DNA of 46,382 nucleotides from Methanobacteriota archaeon (GTDB taxonomy: Archaea; Thermoplasmatota; Poseidoniia; Poseidoniales; Thalassarchaeaceae), in NCBI GenBank assembly GCA_002719615.1, contig PBHZ01000010.1, forward strand, positions 1-46,382. The letters are read 5' to 3'. The translations under genes and the position numbers were made by a program. The notes under the pieces were generated by a model. The model was not told the origin of the DNA and made no database searches. It saw only the letters and a program-made list of their open reading frames with translations. Positions 3,998 through 45,819 of the stretch are shown here, one piece after another (positions within the stretch are counted from its first letter, which is position 1; every line of letters begins with the position of its first letter).

Positions 3998-4174
3998 ATG
4001 GCAACTGGTGAAAGTGACATAGCGGCGGTTGTAGTCGAAGGTGTATATGAAGGAACTTTAGGACGTTTAGATAATAGATGGTGGTGGAAAGATTGGATCA
4101 AACCGATACTATTCTACTCTCTTCCGTTGATTCCTTTTATTTATATTGCTGGATGGTATCTTGGATATTTCTAA
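3998..4174 (+). CDS. Hypothetical small membrane protein (58 aa), below the ORF-track size cut-off
   Basis: My translation is MATGESDIAAVVVEGVYEGTLGRLDNRWWWKDWIKPILFYSLPLIPFIYIAGWYLGYF, with one C-terminal hydrophobic helix. It fills an otherwise 260-bp gap in a very compact genome. Confidence 0.3.
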   Translation: MATGESDIAAVVVEGVYEGTLGRLDNRWWWKDWIKPILFYSLPLIPFIYIAGWYLGYF

Positions 4175-6224: not shown

Positions 6225-7601
6225 TTAATTATCATCAGATAATATCAAGTTATATCTACAGAATTCATCTTTATTGTCTGATGATTGAATTCTTTCGATG
6301 ATAACTTCTTTCATTGAAGAATATCTACTCAGTAAAGTTCCTTCAATTATGCCATCATCAAGTTCCCATAACGGGAGTTGATCTGAGTTGTCAGCATCTG
6401 GTAAGAGATGTACTTTGATATGAAAGATTGGATCTGCATCATAACTTAGTTCTCCAAGACCTGCATATTCATACCAATCCATCATTTCACTAAGGAATTC
6501 TACATGTCCATCAATTTTCCTCAAACTAAATGCAAGTTCTTCGCCTATTCGGTTACCTACCTGACGGAGTAATGATCCAATATCAATTCCAAATGTATTG
6601 AGGCTGGAAATTCCACCTTTTCCTAACTTTTTCCTTGCATCACTTATTTCTAGGCCAGATGCCATAAAGGCATCTAAATTAAATGGAGAATCAGATTCTG
6701 GTAATTCTTCGGATATTTGCAATACATCCCTAATTCGATCTAAAAAGGAGCCTCCCTCTAAAGTTAGCTTTAATGGGTCAACTATTCTTTCTTCGGTAAA
6801 CCTCTTTGATGCTAATTCAAAAGGTATAGCTTCTTCCCAAATACTTTCAATTAAGTTTCTCTGAGATTCTGCGAATGGTGATGACTGAATGAGAAGAGCA
6901 GCATCGGTTTTTCCTCTACCTACCGGATTTTCCTCAGTGTTGAGGTATTGAATAGCTTCTAATTGATCCATTACGGTTCCTTGTGATTCCAAATCATCAC
7001 TATGTCTTACTTCAATTGTTGAGTCTAATTCAGAGAAGAATCGTATCGTACGTCGATCTAGTTGTGCCATTACTTTTACTTCAACGCCTCTTTTTGCAGC
7101 TTTATTTACTTCTGATAAGGCAGTACTTCTGCACAAATGAAGTATACCAAATTTACCTAATGTCAAGATTAGGGAATGCTGAGACTCAAGAGCCATTTTT
7201 TCTATTTTTGAGAATATGTGTACCCTTTCTTTTAGCACTGCAAACTTTGGATCTGTTTCCAAATCGAGAGTGATGTCTTCTTGAATATCTTGTATTTTTC
7301 CTTCCTTGATATCCTCAAATCCTTGTTCAATTTTCTTCAACTGCTCTTTCCTGATATTAATCAAGTGTTCCAGAACATTCTTTAAAGGAGGGCTTGAAAA
7401 TTTCATAGGCCTATCCACTGTTACTGTAACTAATCCGCCGCTTTGCAATCGTTCAAGAGAATTATATGCATCTAATCTCGTAGTTCCAAGTTCCTTTGCT
7501 AATTCGCTGGCCTTTAGATTTGGTTTTGCAGATAATACGATCACTGCCTCAGCTTCTCTTTCAGATAGTCCAGCATCAATTAATAGTGTATTCCAACTCA
7601 T
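6225..7601 (-). CDS. TrmB-family transcriptional regulator with a long C-terminal domain
   Basis: N-terminal winged-HTH LSEREAEAVIVLSAKPNLKASELAKELGTTRLDAYNSLERLQSGGLV is typical of TrmB. The start overlaps the bcp stop by 4 nt. Confidence 0.7.
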   Translation of the reverse strand: MSWNTLLIDAGLSEREAEAVIVLSAKPNLKASELAKELGTTRLDAYNSLERLQSGGLVTVTVDRPMKFSSPPLKNVLEHLINIRKEQLKKIEQGFEDIKEGKIQDIQEDITLDLETDPKFAVLKERVHIFSKIEKMALESQHSLILTLGKFGILHLCRSTALSEVNKAAKRGVEVKVMAQLDRRTIRFFSELDSTIEVRHSDDLESQGTVMDQLEAIQYLNTEENPVGRGKTDAALLIQSSPFAESQRNLIESIWEEAIPFELASKRFTEERIVDPLKLTLEGGSFLDRIRDVLQISEELPESDSPFNLDAFMASGLEISDARKKLGKGGISSLNTFGIDIGSLLRQVGNRIGEELAFSLRKIDGHVEFLSEMMDWYEYAGLGELSYDADPIFHIKVHLLPDADNSDQLPLWELDDGIIEGTLLSRYSSMKEVIIERIQSSDNKDEFCRYNLILSDDN

Positions 7602-8074
7602 TCGAACCTGTCTCCATCAGTAATTCTACTCATCGCGGAAAGTATTTTCGCCACATGAGTCCTAGGCCTAAATAACCAATCATACACATGATGAATGGTA
7701 TTGTCGGGGCCTAATAAAAAAGATGATTTTGCTGGAAATAATCCCAAATGATTAGCTACACCATATTCTACCGCAACTTTTCTATCAGGATCGGATAGTA
7801 ATGTGAATGGTAATTGTAATTCTTCCTTGAATTCTTTATGTTGTTCTATTGTATCTTGGCTTATGCCGATGACTTCCACAGGAGGAGTTAAAGAGCGGAA
7901 TAAATCATATTGGTCTTTAAAAGATAGGCATCCCCTTTTACAGGTAGGTGATCCGTCTTTAGCATAGAAAAATAGTACTTTCCATTGACCATTATAATCA
8001 GATAACGAAAACAATTCACCATCACTGGTGTTCAAAGTAAATTCTGGTGCAGTAGAACCAATTAATGACGACAT
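7598..8074 (-). CDS. bcp: Peroxiredoxin, Bcp (AhpC/TSA) type
   Basis: WKVLFFYAKDGSPTCKRGC carries the peroxidatic Cys in the PxxxTxxC-like context. 158 aa. Confidence 0.85.
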   Translation of the reverse strand: MSSLIGSTAPEFTLNTSDGELFSLSDYNGQWKVLFFYAKDGSPTCKRGCLSFKDQYDLFRSLTPPVEVIGISQDTIEQHKEFKEELQLPFTLLSDPDRKVAVEYGVANHLGLFPAKSSFLLGPDNTIHHVYDWLFRPRTHVAKILSAMSRITDGDRFE

Positions 8075-8114
8075 AATTTAACCTCCATTGTTAATAGATT
8101 AAAACTTAATTGCT

Positions 8115-8741
8115 TTAGAGCATATGTCCCATTCTATTTTTTTTCGTTTCAAGGTAGTTTTTATTGTCTTTTGAAACACCACTGACATGAGAGAATCTCT
8201 TCTGAACTGAGATGCCATTGTCTTCTAAACCTTTTATTTTTAGAGGATTATTCGTCATCATTCTAACTTTGTTGATTCCGAAGTCCTTCAACATATCTGC
8301 AGCAATTTTGTAATCTCTAGCGTCAGCAGGTAAGCCTAGTGCTAAATTGGCATCTAGAGTATCATAACCTTCGTCCTGTAATGCATATGCTTGTATCTTA
8401 GAATGTAAACCAATATCACGACCTTCTTGTCTGAGGTAAACAACTGCTCCAACTCCTTCTTCCTGAATTTTTTGCATTGAAAGTCTTAGTTGCGGTCCAC
8501 AATCACACTTCATGGAACCAAAGGCATCGCCGGTTAAGCATTCGGAATGTATCCTTATTAACGGCGATTTTACGGAATTTAAGTCCCCTGCGTACAACAG
8601 GGAGTGTTCTTTTCCTTTGGAGTCTACGGTTACCCTCACTCTAAAGTTACCATGCTCTGTAGGTAGCAGGGCATCGACTTCAATATCTACTGGTTCAGCT
8701 TCTCTTCTAACTTGTATAGTCATACTTGCTGAATTGTACAC
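8115..8741 (-). CDS. ribA: GTP cyclohydrolase II
   Basis: RIHSECLTGDAFGSMKCDCGPQL zinc/active-site motif. DLGLH...TNNP tail pattern. GTG start. Confidence 0.9.
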   Translation of the reverse strand: MYNSASMTIQVRREAEPVDIEVDALLPTEHGNFRVRVTVDSKGKEHSLLYAGDLNSVKSPLIRIHSECLTGDAFGSMKCDCGPQLRLSMQKIQEEGVGAVVYLRQEGRDIGLHSKIQAYALQDEGYDTLDANLALGLPADARDYKIAADMLKDFGINKVRMMTNNPLKIKGLEDNGISVQKRFSHVSGVSKDNKNYLETKKNRMGHML

Positions 8742-8841
8742 TTACTTATGAATTGATGTTTATTACAATCTGTTTTTAATTCACATTTGAAAACACTTAC
8801 TTATAGGTAATAGGGTATAAGCAAACCTCCGAAGAGGCTAC

Positions 8842-10389
8842 GTGATGAATATTTTTAGACCAGAATCGCCTCGAATTCGTAGCTTAAATAATGAGTCTAT
8901 TGATCCATCAGGGGATTATATTCTATATTGGATGACCTCTGCAAGAAGATTTCACTATAATGCTGCTATGGATAGAGCAGTAGAATTAGCATTAGAATTG
9001 AATAAACCAGTACTAGTTGTTGAATGTATGTCAATCAGACATGATTGGGCAAATGAAAGAATACTAGCATTTTCTGTTCAAGGTATGCTAGACAACATCA
9101 AAATTTTCGAAGATAATAATATCACATATCTTCCATGGGTTGAGACTCACAAAGATTCAGGAAATAAGCTTCTTGCTAAATTATCAACTCACGCATGTTC
9201 TGTAATAGTTGATGATTATCCGACATATTTACCAAGAACCATTATGGAAAAAGCAGCTAGAATATGCAAAGTTAACACAGAGGCTGCGGATTCAAATGGG
9301 ATATTACCCATGGCATGGGCTGGCAAAGAACATTTGACGGCATACTCATTTAGAAAACATGTACAAAGAAGTATGGCAGAAGCATTACTAAATCTACCAT
9401 TAGAGAATTCAATGGAATCAGTATCAACTAACCTTAGGTTTAACCAGAAAGAAATGGCATCTCTGTTTGCAGCAGTTGAAGTAGAATTTACACCATTGGA
9501 ATGGTTGTGGAGAATTGGGGAAGCAGGAAAAATTTCAGAAGTTGCAATGGCTCCATTGAACATAGACCATGAGGTTAAACCTGTTGAAAAAATGAGAGGC
9601 GGTAGATTTGAAGCATTAAAAAGAATGGAAGTTTTCCTAGAAATTAATCTCAAAAGATATGCTACCGACAGAAATAGTACTGAAAATCCAGCTGTAAGTA
9701 CGCTTTCACCTTGGTTTCATTTTGGTCACATATCAACAATAGAAGTTGTTGTTGAGCTCTTCAAAAGAAGCAATTGGAGTTATGATATGACTTGTTTTGA
9801 GGATATGGGCAAAGGAACACGATCTGGATGGTGGGGATTGTCAGAAAGTGAGGAGTCATTCCTAGACCAAATAATTACATGGAGAGAATTAGGATTTAAT
9901 TTTGCCCATTACAGGAGAGATCATAAATCAATCGACTCAATACCAAATTGGGCAAAAAAATCCTTAGAAGACCACGCAGGAGATGAACGTAAACCATATA
10001 CATTCGATGATATTGAAAATGCAAAAACTGATGATGATGTTTGGAATGCTGCTCAAAGAGAGTTGCTAAGAACAGGTTTGATTCATAATTACATGAGGAT
10101 GGTTTGGGGAAAGAAAATCCTAGAGTGGGCGCCAGATCCTAATACTGCTGCCGATTGGATGATAAAAATTAATGATAGATGGGCATTAGATGGTAGAGAT
10201 CCAAACTCTTACACAGGAATATTTTGGGTCTTGGGACGTCATGACAGAGCATGGGGGCCAGAAAGACCAGTATTTGGGAAAGTACGTTACATGACTACTG
10301 AGAGTGCTAGGAGGAAGTTAAAATTGAATAATTACATCAACAGATGGTCAGAAGATGCTCCAATTCCTAGAGAGATACAGAGGTTGTGA
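8842..10389 (+). CDS. phr: Deoxyribodipyrimidine (CPD) photolyase, class II-like
   Basis: The C-terminal FAD-binding region HNYMRMVWGKKILEW...DGRDPNSYTGIFWVLGRHDRAW matches the class II photolyase signature. 515 aa. Confidence 0.88.
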   Translation: MMNIFRPESPRIRSLNNESIDPSGDYILYWMTSARRFHYNAAMDRAVELALELNKPVLVVECMSIRHDWANERILAFSVQGMLDNIKIFEDNNITYLPWVETHKDSGNKLLAKLSTHACSVIVDDYPTYLPRTIMEKAARICKVNTEAADSNGILPMAWAGKEHLTAYSFRKHVQRSMAEALLNLPLENSMESVSTNLRFNQKEMASLFAAVEVEFTPLEWLWRIGEAGKISEVAMAPLNIDHEVKPVEKMRGGRFEALKRMEVFLEINLKRYATDRNSTENPAVSTLSPWFHFGHISTIEVVVELFKRSNWSYDMTCFEDMGKGTRSGWWGLSESEESFLDQIITWRELGFNFAHYRRDHKSIDSIPNWAKKSLEDHAGDERKPYTFDDIENAKTDDDVWNAAQRELLRTGLIHNYMRMVWGKKILEWAPDPNTAADWMIKINDRWALDGRDPNSYTGIFWVLGRHDRAWGPERPVFGKVRYMTTESARRKLKLNNYINRWSEDAPIPREIQRL

Positions 10390-10390
10390 G

Positions 10391-11806
10391 ATGCCAACAA
10401 ATTACAAACATGAAACCAAAGTAAATGCAGATATAGAATCTACATTTGATTGGTTTGAACATGAAGGATCATTTAGGAGATTGATGCCACCTTGGGAGGT
10501 TGCAGAAGAAGTTAGAGCGGATGAATCTTTAGAAGTTGGTTCTCAAAGAGTATTCAGATTTCCTGCGCCAGGTGCACCTTTTTTCAAAATGACTTGGGTT
10601 GCAGAACATACAGGTTATGAAAAACCAAATGGTACAAAAAAGGCATATTTTGCAGATACAATGGTAAAAGGTCCTTTTTGGAAATGGGACCATGACCATT
10701 ATCTTACAGAAGTTGATGGAATTACTACAGTTGTTGATGATGTAACATACAGCGTTCCTTTTGGACCTCTAGGAATGCTAGTAGACAAAGTACTCGGTGG
10801 ATCTTTAGTGACTGGAAGGATTTCATCTATGTTCAATGCAAGAGAATTTAGACTTGTTAGAGATATGGAAAATCACAATAAATTTAATCACTTGAAAAGG
10901 AAGAAAATACTTGTTGCTGGTTCGTCTGGTTTGATTGGAACACAATTAGTCGCTTTTTTGGATACTGGTAATCATGATGTTTGGAGGCTAGTTAGAAGAG
11001 AAGCTGATTCCAATAAAAAAGAAATATCTTGGGATCCCTCGAAAGGAAAGATTAATTTTAGTGAATTAGAAGGTTTTGATATAGTAATCCATCTAGGTGG
11101 CGTAGGAATAGGCGATAAGAGATGGAGTAAGAAAAGGAAGGCTGCAATCAGAGATAGTAGAGTTGATAGTACAACATTATTGAGTAATACTCTAGCCAGT
11201 CTAGAAAATAAACCTGAATTATTCATGGTATCAAGCGCAATAGGATATTATGGAAATAGAGGAGATGAAATTGTAGATGAAAATACTAGCATAGGTGATG
11301 ATTATCTCACAGAAATTTGCGAAAAATGGGAGAATAGTGCTGATTCTGCAAGGAAAGCTGGAATTAGGACTATTCATACCAGAACAGGTATTGTAATGTC
11401 TGCAGTTGGTGGTGCATTAGGTAAAATGCTTCTACCAGCAAAAATGGGAGGAGGAGGACCTATTGGAGGAGGTAAGCAATGGATGTCTTGGATTTCAATG
11501 GATGATCAAATTTATTCCATGTACCACTTGATGATGAGTGAAGATACTGAAGGTGCATATAATCTTACAGCGCCAAATCCAGTCAGGCAAAAGATATTTG
11601 CAAAAACTCTTGGTAAAGTTTTGAGGCGTCCAGCATTCGCACCATTACCAGGATTTGTCATGAAAATAATGTTCGGAGAAATGGGAGTAAAACTAACTCT
11701 AGATAGTCAAAGAGTGATGCCAAAGAGACTTCAAGAATCAGGATATGAATTTGTTCATGAGGAATTAGAACCTGCATTGAGAGATTCTCTCGGAAAATGG
11801 AGATGA
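10391..11806 (+). CDS. SRPBCC (START-like) domain fused to a TIGR01777/SDR39U1-type NAD-epimerase-fold protein (DUF1731 C-terminus)
   Basis: The N-terminal roughly 150 aa are SRPBCC-like. Then ILVAGSSGLIGTQLV Rossmann motif. The C-terminal PAFAPLPGFVMKIMFGEMG...LDSQRVMPKRLQESGYEF is typical of DUF1731. ATG at 10391 is preferred over the track start at 10355, which overlaps phr. Confidence 0.8.
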   Translation: MPTNYKHETKVNADIESTFDWFEHEGSFRRLMPPWEVAEEVRADESLEVGSQRVFRFPAPGAPFFKMTWVAEHTGYEKPNGTKKAYFADTMVKGPFWKWDHDHYLTEVDGITTVVDDVTYSVPFGPLGMLVDKVLGGSLVTGRISSMFNAREFRLVRDMENHNKFNHLKRKKILVAGSSGLIGTQLVAFLDTGNHDVWRLVRREADSNKKEISWDPSKGKINFSELEGFDIVIHLGGVGIGDKRWSKKRKAAIRDSRVDSTTLLSNTLASLENKPELFMVSSAIGYYGNRGDEIVDENTSIGDDYLTEICEKWENSADSARKAGIRTIHTRTGIVMSAVGGALGKMLLPAKMGGGGPIGGGKQWMSWISMDDQIYSMYHLMMSEDTEGAYNLTAPNPVRQKIFAKTLGKVLRRPAFAPLPGFVMKIMFGEMGVKLTLDSQRVMPKRLQESGYEFVHEELEPALRDSLGKWR

Positions 11807-11810
11807 CTAC

Positions 11811-12284
11811 TTGGTAGATTCTCATGAATATTTAGTAGGAACTATTTTGCCTAATTTTAATTGCTTAAATGATGAAGGGGACTTAGTAACAAGTCAAGAT
11901 GTTTATGGTAAGTGGACTGTGATGTTCTTTTATCCTAAAGATGAATCACCAGGATGTACGCTCCAGTCTTGCTCATTCAGAGACAGATATGAACAATTTA
12001 CAGAACAAGGAATTTCACTCTATGGAGTATCATCTGATTCTGTTGAATCTCATAGAAAATTCAAGCAGAGATATAAACTACAATATTCTCTATTAAGTGA
12101 TGAAGGTGGATTACTTGCAAAAGCGTTGAAATTGAAGAAAGACTTTGGTTTTCTTCGCGCAAGAGTTACATTCGTAATTGATCCCGAAGGCACTATTGCC
12201 TTTGCACATACCAGTCAATTAGGAGTAACTGGACATGTGAAAAAGGCATTAAAAGTAATTAAATCTCAAGGAGCAATAGCATGA
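11811..12284 (+). CDS. bcp: Peroxiredoxin, Bcp type (second paralog)
   Basis: WTVMFFYPKDESPGCTLQSC motif. 157 aa. The stop overlaps the start of the downstream transporter. Confidence 0.85.
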   Translation: MVDSHEYLVGTILPNFNCLNDEGDLVTSQDVYGKWTVMFFYPKDESPGCTLQSCSFRDRYEQFTEQGISLYGVSSDSVESHRKFKQRYKLQYSLLSDEGGLLAKALKLKKDFGFLRARVTFVIDPEGTIAFAHTSQLGVTGHVKKALKVIKSQGAIA

Positions 12285-14989
12285 AAAATCCATTTGATAG
12301 GCTAAGTGAAATTTCTATAGATAAGCCAAAAATCGTTATCAGTATTGTAATATTAGGTATTTTGACATTATCTTCGTTTGCAAGATTCATAGTTTTTGAT
12401 AATTCTGAGGATGCATTTTATCCGGAAAATGAAACTACAGACTTGTTGTATGAAGTAGAAGATACATATACAGTAGATGTAGACTTAGTTAGATCTGTGG
12501 TAAGATTTGGAGCTGGAGATTTAGAAACTATTGAAACATGGAATTTACTTGCAGATATTGAATCTGATATGTTAAAAAAATCTGATATGATAGAATATCA
12601 TTATCCGTTATTTGGAGGGGCTGCAAACTCTGGTCCAGCAAGTTCAGTAATTTACTGGCAACAAATTCAGGACCCAGGTTCGGATAAATGGTCAGAAACA
12701 GTTGAAAATGCTTTGCTAGATGTTATGATGTCTGATGATGTAAATCTAAGTAATACAATTTCTGATGCAATAATTACTCTACAATCAATTCCCTCTACCG
12801 AATATCCTGATTCTGGAGATTTGGATAACTGGAGTGTCACAAATCCAAAGGATTGGCAAAGTAGAATGGACAGCGGAGAAAATAATCAGGATAAAATCCT
12901 GAGGCTAATTGGAATAGTTTCAGGACTTACAGAAAACAGAAGTGAATCACAAAATATCTCAATTATTCAACTCCAAGGACAAGCTATGGCTATTTTATCT
13001 CCACTTAATGCATTGCAAGAGATAGATTTGAGAACTTCAATGATGAGTATGTTTCCTGCAGATATGAGAGAAAATCCCTGGACTGAAGCTAACATAGCAT
13101 TGGTAACTTTAGCAGTAGATACAAAACCTGCAATTCATAATGTGGAGTTAGATACTGAAGTTTCACCAATTGTAAGTCAGATGACTGTCGACTTAGAAAA
13201 AACGTTGCAAGATAGTCATGGCTCAACTATAACTGTTTTTGGATTTTCTAGATTTGCTGAAGAACAGGCGGGAAATCTTGGAGCTGAAATTGGAATTCTA
13301 ACTAGTGCATCAATTGTTATTTTGGGAATCATATTATGGAGGCAATTTAGAAGTTTAAGAGATACCAGTATTGTCATTTTCTTGACTTTATTAGCAATTG
13401 GTGCTACTTATGGTGTTGCAGGTATTTTAAAACTAGAATTTAATGGTGCTATGAATAGTATTCCAATTCTACTTTTGGCAATAGGAGTTGATTACGGCTT
13501 ACATGTAGTATTACGGTATAGAGAAGAATTAGTTAACTTAGATTCTGAAGGAAAAGAAACAATGGCAGAGTTTTCTGCTGAAATAAGAGCCAAAGCAATG
13601 AAAACTGGAACAGTTCTGACCTCGGCAGCATTAGTTGTAGCAATATTTACTGATATGGTAGGTTTTCTTAGTTTTAGGTTATCTGCCCAGAATTTCTTAG
13701 TAGTTTTTGGTACAGTAATTGCTGTTGGATTATTTTTCATCTATTTACTTTCAGTGACTGCTCTTCCAGCAGTACTTACCATCCTAAAACCTCAAAATAT
13801 TACATTACTAAAATCCGTTAAGGTTGAAGAAAGTAAATTCTCAAGATGGTCAGGTGAACAGACACTAAATCCAATAACAGTTATTGTTGCTGCTCTACTG
13901 ATTTCCTTTCCTGTAGGTGCAGGAATATCACAATTAGAAATTGGATTTGATTTTAGAGATCAACTGGATGAAGATATTCCGGTAGTAGCTGATTTTCTTA
14001 TTTTAAGTGATGATTTTTCTGGACAAAATACTGCACCTCTTTATGTTGTAATAAATACAGATGTATTCAGTGAATCTGGAAAAAATGCTTATCTAAATGC
14101 AATGTCAGTTCTGGATTCTGATGATAGTATTTCAGAACAAACTGGAGTTTGGGAAATATTAGAATTGGAAGCAACCAAGGATTCTGAATTAAGAAATATA
14201 TTAGACAGTTTAGAAAGTGAAAGTCCAGAATGGTTACAATTACAAAATTGGGTTGATGCTAATCAAGATTTGACATTTAGATACCTCAGAGGTGATTTTA
14301 AACAAACAGTGATTAGTTTCTATGCACCTTCTCTTGATTGGCAAGAAACTGTAGATTTTGTTAATAGTATTGACAGTGGTTTGAATGAATTTGAGGGAGA
14401 TTACAAAGTTTCTGGAAGGGGCTTGATACTAGCACAAATTAGTGAAGATGTGGCAAAATCTGCCGTAGCATCTACTGGAATAGTGGCAGCTATGATTTTA
14501 CTTATGTTAGTAATGATAAATATTTCGCGCGAAAATACCCCGCAAAGAGGTTTTTTGAAAGGATTCGTGATGTGGTTGCCTCTTGCAATTGTAGTGATAT
14601 GGGTATATGGCTTGATGGGGTGGTTTGGATACCAATTAAATTCTCAAACAGTAACAATTGGAGCATTGACTCTTGGTCTTGGTGTAGATTATGCTGTTCA
14701 CTTTGTGACAAGACTTGACGAAGAAATAGAGCATAATCCAAGTGGAGGAATAGTAAATTGGATTTCGATAACTAACGCGACTACTGGAAGAGCGATGATG
14801 GCTGCAGCACTAACTACTGCAGGTGGATTTGCAGTACTCAATCTAAGTTCACTTTTGCCACTGAGATTATTCGGTCAAGCTTTCGTTGTTGCAATCCTCT
14901 TAGCATTGGTTTCCAGTATAATTTTATTACCTTGTTTGATGAGTATATTTGGATTACTTCCAAAAGAAGAAGTTGTATCTAATTCCTAA
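12281..14989 (+). CDS. RND-superfamily / MMPL-type (sterol-sensing-domain-like) membrane exporter
   Basis: Internally duplicated architecture of two TM bundles. Each bundle carries a GVDYxxH motif (AIGVDYGLHVVLRYREE and GLGVDYAVHFVTRLDEE) and each follows a large soluble loop. 902 aa. Confidence 0.8.
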   Translation: MKNPFDRLSEISIDKPKIVISIVILGILTLSSFARFIVFDNSEDAFYPENETTDLLYEVEDTYTVDVDLVRSVVRFGAGDLETIETWNLLADIESDMLKKSDMIEYHYPLFGGAANSGPASSVIYWQQIQDPGSDKWSETVENALLDVMMSDDVNLSNTISDAIITLQSIPSTEYPDSGDLDNWSVTNPKDWQSRMDSGENNQDKILRLIGIVSGLTENRSESQNISIIQLQGQAMAILSPLNALQEIDLRTSMMSMFPADMRENPWTEANIALVTLAVDTKPAIHNVELDTEVSPIVSQMTVDLEKTLQDSHGSTITVFGFSRFAEEQAGNLGAEIGILTSASIVILGIILWRQFRSLRDTSIVIFLTLLAIGATYGVAGILKLEFNGAMNSIPILLLAIGVDYGLHVVLRYREELVNLDSEGKETMAEFSAEIRAKAMKTGTVLTSAALVVAIFTDMVGFLSFRLSAQNFLVVFGTVIAVGLFFIYLLSVTALPAVLTILKPQNITLLKSVKVEESKFSRWSGEQTLNPITVIVAALLISFPVGAGISQLEIGFDFRDQLDEDIPVVADFLILSDDFSGQNTAPLYVVINTDVFSESGKNAYLNAMSVLDSDDSISEQTGVWEILELEATKDSELRNILDSLESESPEWLQLQNWVDANQDLTFRYLRGDFKQTVISFYAPSLDWQETVDFVNSIDSGLNEFEGDYKVSGRGLILAQISEDVAKSAVASTGIVAAMILLMLVMINISRENTPQRGFLKGFVMWLPLAIVVIWVYGLMGWFGYQLNSQTVTIGALTLGLGVDYAVHFVTRLDEEIEHNPSGGIVNWISITNATTGRAMMAAALTTAGGFAVLNLSSLLPLRLFGQAFVVAILLALVSSIILLPCLMSIFGLLPKEEVVSNS

Positions 14990-15058
14990 ATTATTTTTCA
15001 GAATCTTTAGTTTAACTATAGAACACTTTCAGTATTACTAATACCTCAGTGAAAAGTT

Positions 15059-15080
15059 CATTATACCGCCGAGTTAATAT
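15059..15080 (+). promoter_or_regulatory. Promoter/operator motif CATTATACCGCCGAGTTAATAT directly upstream of the small-protein/PolB operon
   Basis: The TTATA (TATA-like) at 15061-15065 lies about 25 nt before ATG 15090, a leaderless-type geometry. A 21/22-identical copy in the same gene-relative orientation sits at 18410-18431. Confidence 0.6.
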
Positions 15081-15083
15081 TCA

Positions 15084-15341
15084 GTGCCCATGGGCAGAAC
15101 AGTACCAACTTGGAGAAACAGGATAGAACGTAGAATAGACAGTTGGAAGCCTTTTAGGAGAGTTTTGAGGCATTCTGAAAGAGATGAATTTGATCGGATG
15201 TTGAATTCGGTGAGAAGTCGTTCTTCTGCTTGTGGTATGCTTCCGACTTCAGATGTTCTTGAGCCCGCTTTACTTGCTATGCTAATCGATATTAATTCTA
15301 GGCTCACCAAATTAGAGGAGGAAAAAAATAGAGATGATTGA
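15084..15341 (+). CDS. Hypothetical small basic protein, translationally coupled to PolB
   Basis: 85 aa (GTG 15084 or ATG 15090), Arg-rich N-terminus MGRTVPTWRNRIERRIDSWKPFRRVLR. The stop overlaps the PolB ATG (ATGATTGA). The antisense ORF 15074-15373 is judged a shadow ORF. Confidence 0.55.
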   Translation: MPMGRTVPTWRNRIERRIDSWKPFRRVLRHSERDEFDRMLNSVRSRSSACGMLPTSDVLEPALLAMLIDINSRLTKLEEEKNRDD

Positions 15342-17736
15342 GGGATGGATTCTCGATACATATCAAGATTCAAACTCTGAAGGAATGGTTGTATGGGTTA
15401 AATTGGATGATGGATCAGTTAGTAAATACATATTCTATTGGTCACCCGTATTGCATATTGCAGGTAATTTAGATGATATTGATGCACTTGAAGTGAAACT
15501 AAAGGAAATGGAATATCAAACACTATTCGGAGTAATGAAATTCTCAAGACAGAAGAGATTCAAAAGTCATGAAGAAAATGGAGTTTCAGAAGTTCTAGCA
15601 ATTTCTATTTCTAGGCCTTCTAAACTTAAACAAGTAGCCGATGTAGTTTCGGCAATTGGTAAATGGAGTAAATTTGATGTCTTTTCGGTTGATCCTAAGC
15701 CCTCTCAAAGATTTCTTCATGATATGAATACACATCCATTTGGTAGGATAAGAATTTCAAATAATCAAATAATTTCACTGGATAAAAGAACAGATGCACA
15801 ATGGGCGCCTCCACCATTAAGACAAGCAATGTTGAAAGTTAACTGCAAAGATAAACATGGAAAACGTAGTTCAAACGGATTAGTCACAGGAGTGACGATA
15901 ATCGATATGGGCTTTTTAGGTTCTAATTCAAAGAGAATACCTATTCATATTCACCTTACTCCTGAAAGAAATGAAGATGAATTTCTCTATGAAGTTGAAC
16001 GAGCAATACATTGGATTAATCCTGATGTTTTGATTACTAACAAAGGAGATAGTATAGATTTTCCAGCTTTGATAAATATTGCATCTAGAAATGGTAGAGA
16101 ATTACGATTTAGTAGAAATAAACGCGGTACTAATATTAGAAGAAAAGCGATTACAACTTGGAGCTATGGCAGAATACTACGATCAGATGCTTATCATGCT
16201 TTAGAAGGTAGAATACACGTAGATATGGGTGCTTCTTTCATCGGTAAAGAAGGTGGTTTAGAAGGGTTATGTGAACTTGCAAGAATGTCTGGAATACCTC
16301 CACAGGATCTGTCAAGATTATCTCCTGGTTCTGCAATTTCTGCTATGCAAATAAGACAATCTATGGAAGATGATGTATTAGTTCCTTGGAAGAAAAATAG
16401 GCCTGAAGATATGAAAACAGGGACGCAGATGCTCATATCGGACAGAGGTGGTTTGTATCTAGATCCAGAACCTGGCGTCCATAAACAAGTGTATGAATTA
16501 GATTTTGCAAGTCTATTTCCAAGTATTATTGCAACCAGAAATATAAGTCCTGAAACAATGAATTGTGAATGTTGTAAAGTTTCAGAAGAAGAAAATTTAC
16601 GAACTGGTAAACTACCTTTAAGGCCTGAAAGTGCTTTTAGAGAAATTGAAAAACGTAAACAATCTAATCAAAAATTACAACTAATAGTACCAGAATTAGG
16701 AATGTATACTTGTACTAAAAAATATGGATTCTTAGGTAGAGTTGTTGCACCCATTATTGAAAGACGTAGTTATCTCAAATCTAGAAGGAAGGTCAAAGGA
16801 GATGTGTGGGATAGAAGACAAAATGTTCTGAAATGGCTTCTAGTGACTTGTTTTGGATATACAGGATATAAAAATGCTAGATTTGGGCGTATAGAATGTC
16901 ATGAAGCAATATGTGCTTGGTCACGTGAGATGATAATAGATGCGATGCATGATGCTAACGAAGAGGGTTGGGATTGTTTACATGCAATTGTAGATTCTAT
17001 TTGGCTTATAGACATACAAAACAGAAGTAATAAGGATCGTGACGAATCAATATCTAGATTGATGGCCAAAATAGAGGTTAAATCTGGTGTACCAATAGAG
17101 CTTGAAGACGTCTATGAATGGATTGCATTTGTACCCAATAGAACTACAGGAGTTGGTGCTCTAACCAAGTATTTTGCACATGGTAAAAACGGGTGGAAAA
17201 TAAGAGGTATTGAGTTACGTCAGCACTCAACTTGTCAATGGATAAAAAATCTTCAAAAAGATATCTTAGAAGAATTGCGCAAACGACCACCAAAGGAAAG
17301 TATTAGAAGATCTGTGAAATTATTTAATGAAGAAATTGTTAAGCTAAAAAAAGGTAAAATTCCTTTATCTAAGCTTATTTTAGGAAGAAGAGTTAGGAAT
17401 AAAGCAGGAGAACATAAGGTATTGAATTTAACAGCTGCAGCACAACTTAGAGAATTGAAGTTGGGTCAAAATACATATCCGGGTAGAAAAATTAGATTTG
17501 CAGTTGTAGGTCAAAGTAGAAGAAATCCTCAGGACAGGATTAGGATGGCATCAGAAATTAAATCAATAAAAACGACGATAATAGGTCAAAAGGGTGATGT
17601 CGTTTATTATGAGACACTTGCTTTACGAGCTGCTTCTGCGTTGTTATCTCCCTTTGGATTATCAGAAGAAGAATTGGTTTCAAGAGGTTCTGTCCAAACT
17701 ACTTTGGATATGTGGTCAGGTAAAATAAAATCTTGA
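15334..17736 (+). CDS. polB: Family-B DNA polymerase, divergent (PolB2-like)
   Basis: Motif A YELDFASLFPSIIATRNISPET. Motif B KWLLVTCFGYTGYKNARFG. KxY motif LTKYFAHG. ExoII-like ITNKGDSIDFPAL. The C-terminal QTTLDMWSGKIKS resembles the tail of Thermococcales PolB. There is no recognisable ExoI DxE, and motif C reads HAIVDS instead of YxDTDS. Confidence 0.9.
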   Translation: MIEGWILDTYQDSNSEGMVVWVKLDDGSVSKYIFYWSPVLHIAGNLDDIDALEVKLKEMEYQTLFGVMKFSRQKRFKSHEENGVSEVLAISISRPSKLKQVADVVSAIGKWSKFDVFSVDPKPSQRFLHDMNTHPFGRIRISNNQIISLDKRTDAQWAPPPLRQAMLKVNCKDKHGKRSSNGLVTGVTIIDMGFLGSNSKRIPIHIHLTPERNEDEFLYEVERAIHWINPDVLITNKGDSIDFPALINIASRNGRELRFSRNKRGTNIRRKAITTWSYGRILRSDAYHALEGRIHVDMGASFIGKEGGLEGLCELARMSGIPPQDLSRLSPGSAISAMQIRQSMEDDVLVPWKKNRPEDMKTGTQMLISDRGGLYLDPEPGVHKQVYELDFASLFPSIIATRNISPETMNCECCKVSEEENLRTGKLPLRPESAFREIEKRKQSNQKLQLIVPELGMYTCTKKYGFLGRVVAPIIERRSYLKSRRKVKGDVWDRRQNVLKWLLVTCFGYTGYKNARFGRIECHEAICAWSREMIIDAMHDANEEGWDCLHAIVDSIWLIDIQNRSNKDRDESISRLMAKIEVKSGVPIELEDVYEWIAFVPNRTTGVGALTKYFAHGKNGWKIRGIELRQHSTCQWIKNLQKDILEELRKRPPKESIRRSVKLFNEEIVKLKKGKIPLSKLILGRRVRNKAGEHKVLNLTAAAQLRELKLGQNTYPGRKIRFAVVGQSRRNPQDRIRMASEIKSIKTTIIGQKGDVVYYETLALRAASALLSPFGLSEEELVSRGSVQTTLDMWSGKIKS

Positions 17737-18398
17737 AGAGAGACTTGAGGATTCCTTTTTTCTAATGGTTTTACAGTCATATCTATTGAATGTAGTTTTG
17801 CTGTGATTGCACTTTTTGATTGTGATAAAATTGTTAATCTATCATTAGCAGAATTTTTTAATTCAGATTTCATTGATTTAGGAAGAAAGGGTTTTGACTG
17901 GTAATTTACAGTCACTAAAACCAAAGAATTCCATTTTTTTGCTATATATTGGATAGCAGATAATGATTCTTTGAGCATAGCAGAGCCTTCTGCCCTCTTT
18001 ACTTGACTATCTGCAAACATAGATGCTAAATCAGAAACGACAATCAATCTTCCCTTTCTTAAATTCTCATCAGAAGTTTGGGAAGCTAAACGTTTGATAA
18101 TTTCAGCCATCTGATGAGCAGTAAATCCTCTACAAGCGTACAAATTATCTAATAGTTCTATTCCTTTTTTTTTACGAGCTAATGGACGAATTAAGGTAGA
18201 AGGATCTAGTCCCATACCTCCGTCAATCCAATGTACAGGCCTTCCTTTTACTAATTCTTCACAAATCATGTACCTAGTTAGATATCTAGTAGAACGTTTT
18301 GACCCTTCTATTAGTAACATTCCACCAACTTCTGGACTTGGGAGGCTAGATTTGAGAGATCGTATTCCCCATGATACATTCTTTGGCTTGTTGGGCAT
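17607..18398 (-). CDS. RecA/RadB/KaiC-fold protein with a degenerate Walker A
   Basis: GGMLLIEGSKRSTRYLT occupies the P-loop position without a GxxGxGK[ST] consensus. There is a Walker-B-like GRLIVVSDLASMF and a later LVLVTVN strand. 263 aa. The 3' end overlaps the PolB 3' end. Confidence 0.5.
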   Translation of the reverse strand: MPNKPKNVSWGIRSLKSSLPSPEVGGMLLIEGSKRSTRYLTRYMICEELVKGRPVHWIDGGMGLDPSTLIRPLARKKKGIELLDNLYACRGFTAHQMAEIIKRLASQTSDENLRKGRLIVVSDLASMFADSQVKRAEGSAMLKESLSAIQYIAKKWNSLVLVTVNYQSKPFLPKSMKSELKNSANDRLTILSQSKSAITAKLHSIDMTVKPLEKRNPQVSLQDFILPDHISKVVWTEPLETNSSSDNPKGDNNAEAARKASVS

Positions 18399-18409
18399 GG
18401 TAATATATT

Positions 18410-18431
18410 ATATTATCTCGGCGGTATAATG
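18410..18431 (-). promoter_or_regulatory. Second copy of the promoter/operator motif (CATTATACCGCCGAGATAATAT on the minus strand) upstream of the RecA-fold gene
   Basis: It is the reverse complement of 15059-15080 with one mismatch. The TATA-like element lies about 27-31 nt upstream of ATG 18398. Confidence 0.6.
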
Positions 18432-18508
18432 TAGTTTTCTTTGTAGGCGATATTAAAGAATAACATCTGCTCGACTCAGATGTAGGAGTTGTAAACATAC
18501 CACGAGTA

Positions 18509-19147
18509 ATGATAATTGGTGCCAATAGAGGAATAGGTAGAGCTCTGTTAGATGGTTACTTAGAAAGAGGTTGGGAATGTATAGCAACATCTCGCAAAGA
18601 ACAAGTTGCAGAAGATAATGTTAGTTGGATCAAATTAGATGTACGTAATCCAAATAACCATGTCCCAATAACAGGAGAGTTAGACTTATTGATTTGTAAT
18701 GCTGGTGTTTTTTTGGATAGAGGAGATAAAATTGGATCTGGTTTTGAACCTGAATTGTGGGAAGATACATTTGCCACTAATGTAACTGGAACATACCTAG
18801 CAATAGAAACACAACTTGAGGCTTTAAGATCTGCTAATAATTCGAAAATCGCTATAATTTCTTCTCAGATGGCAAGTGATACCACAGCACCTGGAGGATC
18901 ATACATTTATCGATCTTCAAAAGCAGCCTCATTGAATCTTGGAAGAAACCTAGCAACAGATCTAAAGTCAGAAGGAATCTCAGTCGGAATATATCATCCG
19001 GGTTGGGTACAAACCGATATGACCAGTAACAAAGGCAAGCTTACTCCTACTGAGTCTGCCAATGGATTAATAGAACGATTTTCGGCTTTATCAATTGAGA
19101 CAACAGGTTGTTTTGAAACATGGGATGGTAGAATACACCCATATTAA
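18509..19147 (+). CDS. Short-chain dehydrogenase/reductase (SDR)
   Basis: IIGANRGIGRAL cofactor motif, NAG motif (ICNAGVF), and YRSSKAA catalytic YxxxK. Confidence 0.8.
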   Translation: MIIGANRGIGRALLDGYLERGWECIATSRKEQVAEDNVSWIKLDVRNPNNHVPITGELDLLICNAGVFLDRGDKIGSGFEPELWEDTFATNVTGTYLAIETQLEALRSANNSKIAIISSQMASDTTAPGGSYIYRSSKAASLNLGRNLATDLKSEGISVGIYHPGWVQTDMTSNKGKLTPTESANGLIERFSALSIETTGCFETWDGRIHPY

Positions 19148-19437
19148 TTTATTATTCTGGCAGATATATCAGAGAAATTAATCATTCCAAAATTATGACT
19201 ATCTTCACTTGCTGTAGGGTCTGGATTATCTCCAACCAAGAATACTCTATTATTTTCAATCAATTGAATTCGCTTAATTATTTTAGTATCCTTTCTAAAG
19301 GGATGTTTAGCTAGAACAATTTGTCCAACTTCGGGAAATCTATCTCCTAAAATCTCAAACTTTACAGTATCGCCATCAACTAATGTGGGCCACATTGAGT
19401 CGCCTTTGACGACTACGTTTAAGAAGCGCGAATCCAA
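19144..19437 (-). CDS. sodX: Ni-SOD maturation protease SodX (S26 signal-peptidase-like)
   Basis: VKGDSMWPTL (Ser nucleophile box) and IKRIQLIENNRVFLVGDN (Lys box / GDN). It lies immediately downstream of sodN and overlaps it. Confidence 0.8.
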   Translation of the reverse strand: MDSRFLNVVVKGDSMWPTLVDGDTVKFEILGDRFPEVGQIVLAKHPFRKDTKIIKRIQLIENNRVFLVGDNPDPTASEDSHNFGMINFSDISARIIN

Positions 19438-19886
19438 GGTACTTCACGGCCTTTTGCAGCCCAGAACATGTTATGAATTTCTTCTACTGCATCCATTAAT
19501 TCTTGTGCATGCTGTTCTGAAACTTCAACTTTACAAGCAGAACATAGTTTTGCAGCCTGCCAGAATGTATCATGAAGATTTGGGATTGATTCAAGATGTT
19601 GTGGTTTGAAGAAATCAGTCCATAGTACTAATAATTCATCTTTGCACTTTTGTGCTTCTTCTTCTTTAATTACTGCATATCTTGACATAGTATTGATGTA
19701 AGCTGCAGAATTACTTCCAGAGTCCCCATGGTTGGCTTCTAAAGTATTCATCTTCTTTGTCATTGATTGAACTGCTTCTGCTGCTACACGTGCGCTTGCA
19801 GGATCATAGACGCCACAAGGCCCATCACAATGTGCACTTGCTTCGATTGTTGGTATGCTATCGTTGGTTTGTTTTGTATCTGTCAT
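19419..19886 (-). CDS. sodN: Nickel superoxide dismutase precursor
   Basis: Pro-peptide followed by the nickel-hook HCDGPCGVYDP (canonical HCxxPCGxY). 155 aa. Confidence 0.92.
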   Translation of the reverse strand: MTDTKQTNDSIPTIEASAHCDGPCGVYDPASARVAAEAVQSMTKKMNTLEANHGDSGSNSAAYINTMSRYAVIKEEEAQKCKDELLVLWTDFFKPQHLESIPNLHDTFWQAAKLCSACKVEVSEQHAQELMDAVEEIHNMFWAAKGREVPWIRAS

Positions 19887-35128: not shown

Positions 35129-35785
35129 TTATTCTGTTTCGTCGGAATCTTCTGATTTTTCTTGCGAAGCTTGTTCTTTAACAGCATCAAGAGCTTCATT
35201 CATACGGTCTTTGAATGTATCTTGCTTTTGCCGGAACTCAGCCATAGCTTGTACTGCACTGTCTATCATCTCATATCTAGTTTGAATAGCTTCATTGAGG
35301 TTTTCAAATAATTGCATATGTTGAACATACCAGTCATCCCTTGCAGACATTTCAGTAGTTGCTGTTTGTAAAGCTTCATCTAATTCTTCGGCTACTTCGA
35401 AAACACGCCCTAACCTTGCCTTTTCTCTGGAATACATTTCTTCTGTTTTCTCTAGTTTTGGTTCAAGATGTTCTATAGTTTTATTTGCCTTGGCACGCTC
35501 TAATTCCATTGCTCTCAAACGCTCATCTTTCTCATCCAGAAGTGCTTGAATTCCTTCTTTCTCAATTTCACTATTTACAGCCTCTTTTTCTAAAACTTCA
35601 ATAATGGCTTGTAATTCTTCATTTAGCTTTGATGATTCATTATATGCAATATATAATTTTTCTAATCTATCATTTGCTATTCTCAAATCCTCTTCTAAAT
35701 TTACTGAAGATGGAGCGTTTGGTTCAGGAAAACCGATTCCATTTTCGCCTTCGTTCATGTCTGCCTCGATATGTTCCACAACCAC
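35129..35785 (-). CDS. Acidic coiled-coil protein, function unknown
   Basis: 218 aa, heptad-rich, Glu/Lys/Leu-dominated (LEKLYIAYNESSKLNEELQAIIEVLEKE...). GTG start. Confidence 0.55.
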   Translation of the reverse strand: MVVEHIEADMNEGENGIGFPEPNAPSSVNLEEDLRIANDRLEKLYIAYNESSKLNEELQAIIEVLEKEAVNSEIEKEGIQALLDEKDERLRAMELERAKANKTIEHLEPKLEKTEEMYSREKARLGRVFEVAEELDEALQTATTEMSARDDWYVQHMQLFENLNEAIQTRYEMIDSAVQAMAEFRQKQDTFKDRMNEALDAVKEQASQEKSEDSDETE

Positions 35786-35790
35786 ATCTG

Positions 35791-35812
35791 ATTTAACATC
35801 GGCGGAATTAAT
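35791..35812 (-). promoter_or_regulatory. Weaker third copy of the CCGCCGA-core motif (ATTAATTCCGCCGATGTTAAAT on the minus strand) upstream of the coiled-coil gene
   Basis: 14/22 identity to the 15059 motif, including the whole TxCCGCCGA core. The core sits 14-20 nt upstream of GTG 35785, similar to the geometry at 15084. Confidence 0.3.
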
Positions 35813-45200: not shown

Positions 45201-45819
45201 CAACATCAATTAAAGAAAATGGTTTATCTGAATTCGATAGTCTATCAATGATTTTTTTTGTTGCCATATCCGGATGTGTTCTTCCTGTTTTTTGCTCAAG
45301 ATTTTTCAATATTTTCCTGAAAGAATTCAGACCTGGTCCATCCCATGACTCAGCAATATTTTCATTAGAAAGATATTCATGTAATGTAGATAATGCAGAT
45401 GTTTTTCCTCTACTCCATTCCATTTCTGGAATAGGATTCATTATAGGAAATGTTAGTTTTTTAGCTTCTTTCCTACATTCTTCATGTAAAATAATGTTAA
45501 ACTCTTCTTTTACAGATAATAATCTTGGAAACCTGAAATCTGCTAATAATGAAATTAATAATGAATTTATGGTATGATGAAGTTTCCTATCGAATACAAA
45601 ACCTTCGAGGCTTAATTCAGATAAAGACTGCATTCGTGATTCTTCGGAAGGATATATTATCATTATCTTATTTTTCCTTTTTTCAGGTATAGAATTTGGA
45701 CTAATTGCTTGCCATCTGATGTGCTCTTTTAACCACACAGGAAGGTGTCCCTCAGAGACTAGTTCATTGGTAATAAAACAATCCTCCCTAAACGACATCA
45801 CATCACCGAGCACACTCAA
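42229..45819 (-). CDS. AddB/RexB-like subunit: helicase-like scaffold without a P-loop plus a C-terminal Cys4-stapled PD-(D/E)XK nuclease, 1196 aa
   Basis: AddB-like VRILTPDQAIGCSADLIILANL segment. Nuclease motifs HGNLLHFIHHD, GKIDRVD, IIIRDLKT, QLAIYARAW. Cysteines at 828, 1179, 1182 and 1188 (C-x350-CxxC-x5-C, the AddB spacing). The stop overlaps the AddA-like ATG (TAATG at 42227-42231). The start is TTG 45819 or ATG 45798. Confidence 0.75.
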   Translation of the reverse strand: MSVLGDVMSFREDCFITNELVSEGHLPVWLKEHIRWQAISPNSIPEKRKNKIMIIYPSEESRMQSLSELSLEGFVFDRKLHHTINSLLISLLADFRFPRLLSVKEEFNIILHEECRKEAKKLTFPIMNPIPEMEWSRGKTSALSTLHEYLSNENIAESWDGPGLNSFRKILKNLEQKTGRTHPDMATKKIIDRLSNSDKPFSLIDVEGIIMLNHPPGMLKSHQELLLSISNHCPIHQLVYPGNFRLGHHGFLLIDKYPINSKNELPQWIPLHEIELIKQQPNVTRYLLQREDHSFNSAISLAQQFLEKDSTSTVIIIDPSLDSNIFRWKRLIENIGLSMKENNKSIISDSYGHWLKQLITLGHSANSFSLESLRTIAQQETISPFESNLIHPTNSEIIPMPDFQLLTNLARNDHILGGPGALRRWLESLARPPNSEIDEIKKESTQWWLLSLAKSLQPLLREEDISVLKERKLLTGCHSEIILPLDESNIDGDKWILNQFKSSNNLINSDFMDDYTGKFLVIQTLLTSHQELRNMQSNLKHNYPKRGTDWVEEYLTLMNSVLLPDNQLKSSSRLRILTPDQAIGCSADLIILANLSSSSWDMRVPKLPFIGEEERHKFNLLRPDGPIRKARHFLKHLLFSAKETIILDPSLDDTAPPTAPIREWILSNENIEKLTLEFSPTSPRDYRQLDGNKLIKGIKAQYSPINPSSISIPLDVQLQRERERRQPDIVDDNQYLSFESRDHIFYFNYSDLSRKTPPGEIIPREFFSWPVIGGITKDGKRTPTIDPRPFTPISTGINVSDSRHGHGTGLGQNVTIWSASKLHDWLKCPRSGWLNRILKANQEELQSEDLDSRTHGNLLHFIHHDILCRILNMKIGEEFDSINGKRENINIGNSYLSKNEVMKVALESLDSRAPWLDRTDAVSIHRLQVLTGMNREQYNDWLANPTPVEPKGRIGTIIEAEFSISDGMPISIEWDTDNYDDNGIEIDIPSEITSPNMQKLPPIKVKGKIDRVDQVPLDKDRKIWYNKDGDNSIAPLKLTDSDWKPKRLIIIRDLKTSESKSSKERHNIGLLEELQLAIYARAWEIAHPGDLVVGVGISLFSHNTSHNLETSNFFPHINKLDIGIISRTTEDLYRFPNENNNPSSDQFRAWLTHRLSVSLGVANNAKLGKVHPTPSKKVCSYCSVKQICDVKMEDDF

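Follow-up and report, generated by a model that had tools for sequence, protein, structure and literature searches.

A PolB2 mutasome module of marine group II archaea with a near-identical probable core promoter at each end and a damage-response-like box on one side

Introduction

The Poseidoniales, never yet brought into culture, rank among the most abundant archaea in surface ocean waters. In a stretch of 46,382 nt from one of them, a Thalassarchaeaceae (marine group II) archaeon, the gene of a PolB2-type DNA polymerase lies between two partner genes, and the three are bracketed by two nearly identical sequences in inverted orientation. PolB2 is the main mutagenic translesion polymerase of Sulfolobales. 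Below, this whole stretch is called the window, and all window counts refer to its full length. What are the two bracketing sequences? The original prediction, made from the letters of the window, preferred a shared promoter/operator that would regulate the three genes as one unit, and offered as an alternative the terminal inverted repeats of a polymerase-carrying element. We addressed the question by comparison with a set of about 100 related loci (L-numbers below label the comparison stretches).

The association of PolB2 with arCOG07300 (PPB2) and an inactivated RadA was described by Makarova 2014 (PMC4104785), and the module was modelled as a heteropentameric "PolB2 mutasome" by Timinskas 2025 (PMC11791011). 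The latter paper cites genetics according to which the Saccharolobus islandicus polymerase, Dpo2, is needed for targeted mutagenesis. Dpo2 of S. islandicus is damage-inducible, and its induction depends on the Orc1/Cdc6 paralogue Orc1-2.

Results

The three genes and their layout

Positions 15021-18439 of the window hold a chromosomal PolB2 mutasome module, whose genes are the known set of PPB2, a PolB2/Dpo2-type polymerase and an inactivated RadA (iRadA):

15090-15341, + strand, PPB2 (arCOG07300/DUF8156), the PolB2 partner, 83 aa
15334-17736, + strand, PolB2/Dpo2-type family B DNA polymerase, 800 aa
17607-18398, - strand, iRadA, inactivated RadA/Rad51-core protein, 263 aa
17607-17736, convergent overlap of the PolB2 and iRadA 3' ends, 130 nt by open reading frame coordinates

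The candidate damage-tolerance module seen in the original prediction is therefore correct in substance and not new (PMC11791011, PMC4104785). The co-occurrence and synteny on which that prediction turned are also found: every complete locus of the comparison set has all three genes in the same layout, in which iRadA converges on a co-oriented PPB2-PolB2 pair. Marine metagenomes supplied the nearest loci, and these have the gene order of the window: an adh_short gene followed by iRadA, PolB2, PPB2 and then an MMPL gene. On the + strand PPB2 and PolB2 are an operon with translational coupling, the PPB2 stop overlapping the PolB2 start by 8 nt, and iRadA is a separate convergent unit. In the literature the genes are mostly co-oriented in one operon, whereas the Poseidoniales iRadA is convergent wherever a locus includes it, has its own promoter and overlaps the 3' end of PolB2; this overlap, of 52-142 nt, is kept across Poseidoniales relatives. 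Full-length PolB2 and iRadA transcripts would be mutually antisense over 17607-17736, and the overlap could mediate transcriptional interference or coupled termination.

The small PPB2 protein had been read as 85 residues from a GTG at 15084. Its start is instead the ATG at 15090, giving 83 residues (MGRTVPTW...), because relatives keep MGRT through synonymous codon changes; the upstream GTG is not conserved. A homologue in L010, 99% identical by tblastn, is annotated as PF26485 (DUF8156), and a Pfam scan of the window protein itself gave no match, the copy of Pfam that was scanned probably being without the DUF8156 model. The protein has the features of the PPB2 group: about 90 residues, an all-alpha fold of three helices, a free N-terminal arm and a gene directly upstream of PolB2. 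A single-sequence AlphaFold2 model (pLDDT 73.6) shows the free arm (residues 1-7 unstructured) and three main helices at residues 8-23 (with a DSSP break at 19), 28-47 and 54-82. Foldseek searches against the PDB returned generic helical bundles alone, all non-significant at E > 1. The PPB2 fold was reported to resemble the N-terminal domain found in sigma factors and to assemble as a trimer (Timinskas 2025, PMC11791011).

The polymerase matches PF00136 (E 7.5e-22) and family B enzymes in the PDB down to E 5e-39. Its exonuclease domain match, PF03104, is below threshold at E 0.012, and the N-terminal 200 residues do not align with PDB family B enzymes. In motif C, "haivDsiw" aligns with "yidtDgly" of the Pyrococcus abyssi polymerase, so that DTD has become IVD and the first Asp is lost. 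The C-terminus (17716-17736) reads VQTTLDMWSGKIKS, and QTTLDMW in it aligns with the C-terminal QVGLGAW of the P. abyssi enzyme. We take a C-terminus of this type to be a PIP-like motif; through it, judging from the alignment, the mutasome would carry a clamp-binding motif on its polymerase. As in the PolB2/Dpo2 group, the gene lies beside those of PPB2 and an inactivated RadA.

The iRadA matches are weak yet consistent (Rad51 at E 0.004, RadA/Dmc1 models at about E 5e-5, DMC1 chains at E 0.015), with homology to the Rad51/RadA/DMC1 core confined to residues ~76-181. No GK[ST] P-loop occurs anywhere in the 263 residues, and the expected position reads EGSKRSTRY. Since the core homology begins near the N-terminus, there is no room for a helix-hairpin-helix domain. 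Two side observations concern this gene. In L009 (10001-12774, a long-read "pilon" assembly) iRadA and PolB2 are frameshift-split into pieces of 167, 300 and 492 aa with intact promoters, either an assembly error or a decaying copy. Inside the window iRadA, 18015-18079 on the - strand matches an Rfam C/D-box snoRNA family at 28 bits, against a gathering threshold of 48 (E 0.01), probably by chance.

Overall, the window agrees with the described PolB2 mutasome operon (PMC4104785, PMC11791011) in the presence of all three protein families, in a PPB2 gene directly upstream of and overlapping PolB2, in a motif C that has lost its first Asp (IVD in the window, IID in S. islandicus), in a RadA paralogue that has neither a P-loop nor an N-terminal domain, and in a PIP-like polymerase C-terminus.

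A conserved, probable core promoter at both ends of the module

The bracketing 22-mers are present as claimed, CATTATACCGCCGAGTTAATAT at 15059-15080 (+ strand) and CATTATACCGCCGAGATAATAT at 18410-18431 (- strand), identical at 21 of 22 positions. The inverted repeat is longer than was first noted: 15051-15080 and 18410-18439 are complementary over 27 of 30 nt. With up to 3 mismatches allowed, the window has no other match to the 22-mer, and 100 dinucleotide shuffles gave none. Both arms can be divided into the same parts, among them a candidate purine-rich TFB recognition element (BRE) and a TATA-like element:

15051-15081, + strand, PPB2-PolB2 core promoter, arm 1 of the 30-nt repeat
15051-15057, + strand, BRE-like GAAAAGT
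15058-15065, + strand, TATA-like TCATTATA
15066-15073, + strand, GC block CCGCCGAG
15074-15081, + strand, AT-rich TTAATATT
18409-18439, - strand, iRadA core promoter, arm 2 of the 30-nt repeat, conserved in relatives
18433-18439, - strand, BRE-like GAAAACT
18425-18432, - strand, TATA-like ACATTATA
18417-18424, - strand, GC block CCGCCGAG
18409-18416, - strand, AT-rich ATAATATA

The predicted geometry holds, with TTATA 25-29 nt before the ATG at 15090 and 27-31 nt before the ATG at 18398. The TATA box, CATTATA, is non-canonical; because it is centred ~27-28 nt before the PPB2 ATG and ~29-30 nt before that of iRadA, the mRNAs would have a very short leader or none. Neither start is preceded by a visible Shine-Dalgarno sequence. 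The (G/A)TGCCCA with which both reading frames had been said to begin is true of the window and is not conserved among relatives.

In relatives these elements are conserved upstream of both transcription units, as expected of a motif in promoter position at both ends. Low-GC Thalassarchaeaceae-like clades have (G)AAAA(G/C)T-(T/A)CAT(T/C)A(T/C)A-CCGCCG(A/C) at both promoters, and in all relatives the distance from the first C of CCGCCG to the ATG is 23-26 nt. An alignment of 22 distinct promoters from diverged relatives, covering both the PPB2 and the iRadA side, has invariant columns AAA and CAT.A.ACC..CG, at the BRE, TATA and GC-block positions, and a downstream AT, while the flanking columns vary. 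The promoter unit persists between clades with only 62% identity in PolB2 and 47% in iRadA, a distance at which neutral sites should be saturated.

Among the matches listed in a genome scan, the archaeal copies of the motif are also specific to the module. A pattern scan over one genome per species matched at least 119 stretches, mostly bacterial chance matches. The only archaea among the matches listed were metagenome-assembled genomes of Poseidoniales (Thalassarchaeaceae, "Euryarchaeota TMED129" and others); they gave at least 13 instances, and all 13 listed lie directly upstream of PPB2 or iRadA. The non-archaeal matches listed are scattered single bacterial ones. A thaumarchaeal origin of the window, which its GC content had suggested, was rejected on the strength of these archaeal matches. 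Within the window the other promoters are unlike the repeat arms, some having GGAGG leaders, and CCGCCGA is present in a single other upstream region. Thus the objection raised with the original prediction, that the motif might be a generic strong-promoter consensus, is not borne out: CCGCCGA occurs three times in 46 kb, and all archaeal matches listed belong to PolB2 modules. We conclude that both copies are held by purifying selection and, as far as the matches listed go, are specific to the module, and from position and conservation we infer that each arm is the core promoter of its unit. The shared promoter/operator of the original prediction stands as far as the core promoter is concerned, which is common to both units; in this clade it is not the whole regulatory region, and ACTTTC (see below) is found on the PPB2 side alone.

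The same scan yielded two bacterial observations. The pattern TWCATYAYACCGCCGMNNNAAT matched the Candidatus Electronema halotolerans chromosome OW818675.1 five times in four stretches (L065, L070, L085 and L151), which suggests a dispersed repeat unrelated to the PolB2 module. In addition, a set of Psychrobacter species has one TWCATYAYACCGCCGMNNNAAT match each, probably in one conserved gene.

The near-identity of the arms might also stem from a recent promoter duplication or from gene conversion, with no selection on each copy. The 27 of 30 identical positions in the window fit such an origin, as does the resemblance of the iRadA promoter to the PPB2 core minus its upstream box. However, the two arms of L005 differ (CATTACACCGCCGCG at PPB2, CATCATACCGCCGAG at iRadA), yet both persist across clades, and lineage-specific changes are not common to both copies of one genome, which argues for selection on each arm and against gene conversion. 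A single ancient duplication is possible, but its maintenance since then requires selection, and we regard recent copying as a highly improbable explanation. Even less credit can be given to the view that the conserved sequence works at the RNA level, in a 5' leader or a small RNA. Each copy does have the same orientation relative to its gene; on the other hand, the ATG comes only 9-17 nt past the repeat end, the position of CATTATA fits a TATA box for transcription starting at the ATG, and an Rfam search of 14500-19000 gave no relevant match.

Evidence against the arms as ends of a mobile element

The alternative that the arms are terminal inverted repeats of a PolB-carrying mobile element has three observations in its favor. 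The 30-nt arms bracket the module; a 3.65-kb module is 99.9% identical in L005, L006 and L007 while the flanking genes differ; and homology between the window and L005 is confined to 15023-18443. With L008 added (L005 9738-13405, L006 5660-9317, L007 1-3655, L008 51-3698) the module is 99.9-100% identical, with flanks that differ on both sides. The differing flanks are explained otherwise: L005 and L006 have a distal HxlR region in common, so the flanks differ by insertions or deletions beside a fixed module, and L001 and L005 likewise have the 292-aa neighbour in common. In close relatives the module is still flanked by adh_short and, at its opposite end, by MMPL, and the window clade keeps a single location.

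The rest of the evidence also goes against mobility. No transposase, integrase, Cas1 or protein-primed PolB gene is present in the module; no target-site duplication is seen in the bases beyond the arms; and the window contains no tRNA gene. The arms stand at a fixed distance from the start codons and are promoter-like in all relatives, distant Poseidoniales have the same three-gene layout with dissimilar promoters and no inverted repeat, and viral contigs gave chance matches only. Casposons and other self-synthesising PolB elements likewise have a family B polymerase gene between inverted repeats, but PolB2 is not of the protein-primed type, no Cas1, integrase or target-site duplication is present, and here the "repeats" are promoters of a locus that is syntenic among relatives. 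We therefore set aside the mobile-element alternative of the original prediction as having next to no likelihood. Separately, genes seem to be gained and lost with particular frequency in the sequence directly beside the module, where T5orf172, HNH, GshA and pentapeptide proteins are among the neighbours.

An ACTTTC box upstream of the PPB2-PolB2 promoter

If the arms are core promoters, where could a damage signal enter? A candidate site is a box resembling the DNA damage-responsive element (DDRE) of Sulfolobales:

15021-15038, + strand, DDRE-like box GAACACTTTCAGTATTAC, with the hexamer ACTTTC at 15025-15030, 65 nt upstream of the PPB2 ATG

In Poseidoniales, 64 of 71 distinct PPB2 upstream regions have A.TTT(C/T)A between -85 and -50, and in 41 it stands exactly at -65/-66. 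These promoters span genomes of 32-68% GC, with the consensus TTCACTTTCAC, often in tandem, and the box is conserved more deeply than the repeat arms. A weight matrix was built from the Poseidoniales PPB2 sites, with iRadA and SRAP sites excluded from its construction. In 1.0 Mb of Poseidoniales DNA it gave 65 distinct matches scoring 15 bits or more, and nearly every one precedes PPB2 or iRadA by 60-75 nt. In the window it gave 22 matches of at least 9 bits, versus 12 in shuffles, and only the PPB2 site is intergenic; at 14.5 bits this site is the best intergenic match in the 46 kb. The next candidate, 4004-4019, was rejected as lying inside a small open reading frame, and the matrix scan found no further targets in the window. 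The box is absent from the window iRadA promoter, where no score in the 260-nt upstream region exceeds -0.4 bits.

In Sulfolobus acidocaldarius the UV-inducible promoters of upsE and upsA have ACTTTC as their hexamer (PMC5817253), and A(N)TTTC is the core of a 20-nt element that is footprinted by S. islandicus Orc1-2 and needed for induction (PMC6061795). The likeness to this element (20-nt consensus AATAGTTTCRGWDTACTCWS; PMC6061795, PMC5817253) extends beyond the hexamer. In both cases ACTTTC lies upstream of a BRE and of the PolB2 operon, the S. islandicus PolB2 operon being itself damage-induced and Orc1-2-dependent; the window reads ACTTTCAGTAT(T)ACT against AGTTTCRGWDTACTC; and the motif is non-palindromic and often tandem (TTCACTTTCACTTTC). 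The differences are that the present host lineage is euryarchaeal (Thermoplasmatota), that the iRadA promoter of the window clade lacks the box, and that one sister clade lacks it at both promoters. Marine group II has a protein of the Cdc6/Orc1-2 cluster that branches near the crenarchaeal ones (PMC3914693), and arORC2 genes are neighbours of PolB2 in many euryarchaea (PMC4104785).

Two further observations concern the iRadA side in relatives. In other Poseidoniales clades an SRAP gene (abasic-site protection) is divergent from iRadA (L164 9291-9932, L165 5640-6341, L222, L236 and L239-L242), and the common intergenic region of the two has one to three ACTTTC boxes; this position agrees with the report of Timinskas 2025 (PMC11791011) that SRAP is enriched near polB2. 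L001-L004, which belong to a sister clade without ACTTTC at either promoter, have a tRNA gene at ~9835-9915 (GCA anticodon, judged by eye), ~120 nt upstream of where iRadA starts.

The GC block and a third CCGCCGA site

The window iRadA promoter without ACTTTC is typical of its clade. The distinct iRadA promoters form two types that hardly overlap: of the two elements, the GC block alone is present in 37, the DDRE alone in 21, both in one and neither in four (their start codons being partly mis-set). The GC-block type is found in the window's closest clades, with PolB2 identity of 55% or more and with genomes of 53-58% GC among them, and the block, ACC(G/C)(C/T)CGA at about -27, is retained through a GC shift from 35% to 58%. 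This type probably goes back to a single ancestral switch and was then maintained for long.

CCGCCGA occurs at 3 sites in the window versus 0.3 expected. Beside the two repeat arms there is one more:

35792-35806, - strand, third CCGCCGA site TCCGCCGATGTTAAA, with CCGCCGA at 35799-35805

A conserved acidic coiled-coil gene (35129-35758, - strand, 209 aa) has its ATG at 35758, 47 nt downstream of the site, and itself follows downstream of the AddA/AddB-like genes and an M20 peptidase gene described below. Upstream of homologues of this gene TCCGCCGA-N-GTTAAA is kept in genomes of 36-61% GC, and the gene may be a further member of the same regulon. In these loci a further GGTCGAG ~27 nt downstream is also conserved, and the product has the JGI label "chromosome segregation ATPase".

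The GC block is probably the binding site of a second factor. Such a CCGCCGA-reading factor would explain why the block is retained, how an iRadA promoter without the DDRE could be under common control, and why there is a third site. The competing explanation is that the arms are basal core promoters only, with CCGCCGAG acting as a downstream TFB contact or in tuning to a TFB or TBP paralogue rather than as an operator; co-expression would then come from promoter similarity alone, and all regulation from ACTTTC or elsewhere. The block does abut the TATA box and is conserved together with BRE and TATA as a single unit; the BRE-like part recurs in a GAAAAC-TTAATTATAA promoter of generic appearance at another place in the window; and at the coiled-coil promoter CCGCCGA is directly upstream of GTTAAA, as a BRE would be. 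But CCGCCGA is very rare, with its 3 sites in 46 kb, none of the ~17 other intergenic promoters of the window that were examined has it, and retention of the iRadA block from 35% to 58% GC goes beyond the need of a basal spacer. We consider the purely basal explanation unlikely, though clearly less so than the alternatives weighed above, and keep to a regulatory role of the block as the preferred reading.

The genomic neighbourhood

The neighbours named in the original prediction, a photolyase, peroxiredoxins and a superoxide dismutase (SOD), were confirmed in the window, together with a putative regulator and a bacterial-type gene pair:

6225-7601, MsvR/TrmB-like regulator
7598-8074, peroxiredoxin
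8842-10389, class II CPD photolyase
11811-12284, peroxiredoxin, named from the collinear L009/L010 homologue
19419-19886, Ni-SOD
37298-42229 and 42229-45819, - strand, bacterial-type AddA/AddB-like pair, in an archaeon

The module thus stands amid light and oxidative-stress genes (6225-12284 and 18509-19886), GTP cyclohydrolase II among them. None of the promoters of these neighbours has an ACTTTC box of at least 9 bits or CCGCCGA. The AddAB-like pair consists of a 1643-aa protein combining a UvrD helicase with a PD-(D/E)XK nuclease and a 1196-aa protein with a PD-(D/E)XK domain, is followed by the M20 peptidase gene, and is conserved in this layout in Poseidoniales relatives.

To look for a linked regulator, the flanking genes of ~90 loci were clustered over a span of 3.5 kb and the 20 commonest unannotated clusters were Pfam-scanned; no obvious transcription factor was found within 3.5 kb of the module.

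Discussion

The combined evidence suggests the following account of the locus, which we consider likely as a whole. The PPB2-PolB2 and iRadA units would be expressed from near-identical promoters; because both copies are under selection and specific to the module, the three subunits of one complex would be kept in step. A DNA-damage input would most likely arrive through the separate upstream ACTTTC box at -65 on the PPB2 side, read as the same hexamer that is bound by Orc1-2 when it activates dpo2 and other damage genes of Sulfolobales. In the Thalassarchaeaceae-like clade the iRadA promoter would have lost ACTTTC and have the BRE/TATA/ACC(G/C)(C/T)CGA unit in its place, and a second factor on the GC block would tie iRadA, and perhaps the coiled-coil gene 35129-35758, to the same control. 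This tie of iRadA is the weakest step of the account.

Several observations weigh against it. A sister clade (L001, L112, L160) has the core unit and no ACTTTC at either promoter. The box, at -65 to -60, lies ~20 nt further upstream than in S. acidocaldarius, where it occupies -44 to -39, adjacent to the BRE of upsX (PMC5817253). The 6-nt core is low in information, and by our estimate ANTTTC would occur by chance in a conserved block in ~1-2% of cases. No orc1/cdc6 gene was found within 3.5 kb of the module in the loci compared. The division of iRadA promoters into GC-block and DDRE types follows clades and may represent a single switch, not many independent tests. Finally, high-GC relatives of the coiled-coil gene have no TATA-like sequence upstream of CCGCCGA, and the motif may play a different, BRE-like role at that gene.

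A bolder version of this account is a two-layer circuit, in which Poseidoniales would run an Orc1-2-driven damage regulon through ACTTTC at -65, and in Thalassarchaeaceae a second factor reading CCGCCGA would link iRadA, PPB2-PolB2 and the coiled-coil gene. The comparative data make this possible, and we put it forward only tentatively, as somewhat doubtful in its full form. In its logic the arrangement resembles the LexA/SOS control of umuDC (Pol V), where an error-prone polymerase and its accessory subunits are likewise under a dedicated cis-element beside the core promoter; the proteins and the transcription machinery are unrelated, however, no LexA is present, and any repressor role of CCGCCGAG is putative.

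The literature searchable here yielded no promoter analysis of PolB2 operons and no mention of Poseidoniales in this connection. Relative to that literature, the convergent overlapping layout with two promoters, the conserved twin core promoter, and a Sulfolobus-type box in a marine euryarchaeal lineage are new.

On the account given above, leaderless starts would be expected at 15084-15090 and ~18398, the two units would co-vary in ocean metatranscriptomes with daytime or UV induction, and binding by the Poseidoniales Orc1-2 would depend on ACTTTC. If the bolder two-layer circuit exists, the Orc1-2 damage response would be ancestral to, or have been exchanged between, Thermoproteota and Thermoplasmatota. 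To our knowledge, the Orc1-2 circuit is the only known damage-response circuit of archaea. Overall, the analysis adds comparative evidence for two cis-elements at the PolB2 module of sun-exposed marine group II archaea, from which we infer the regulatory readings given here; by its identity with the Orc1-2 damage box, ACTTTC would extend this damage-response circuit to an uncultured euryarchaeal lineage.

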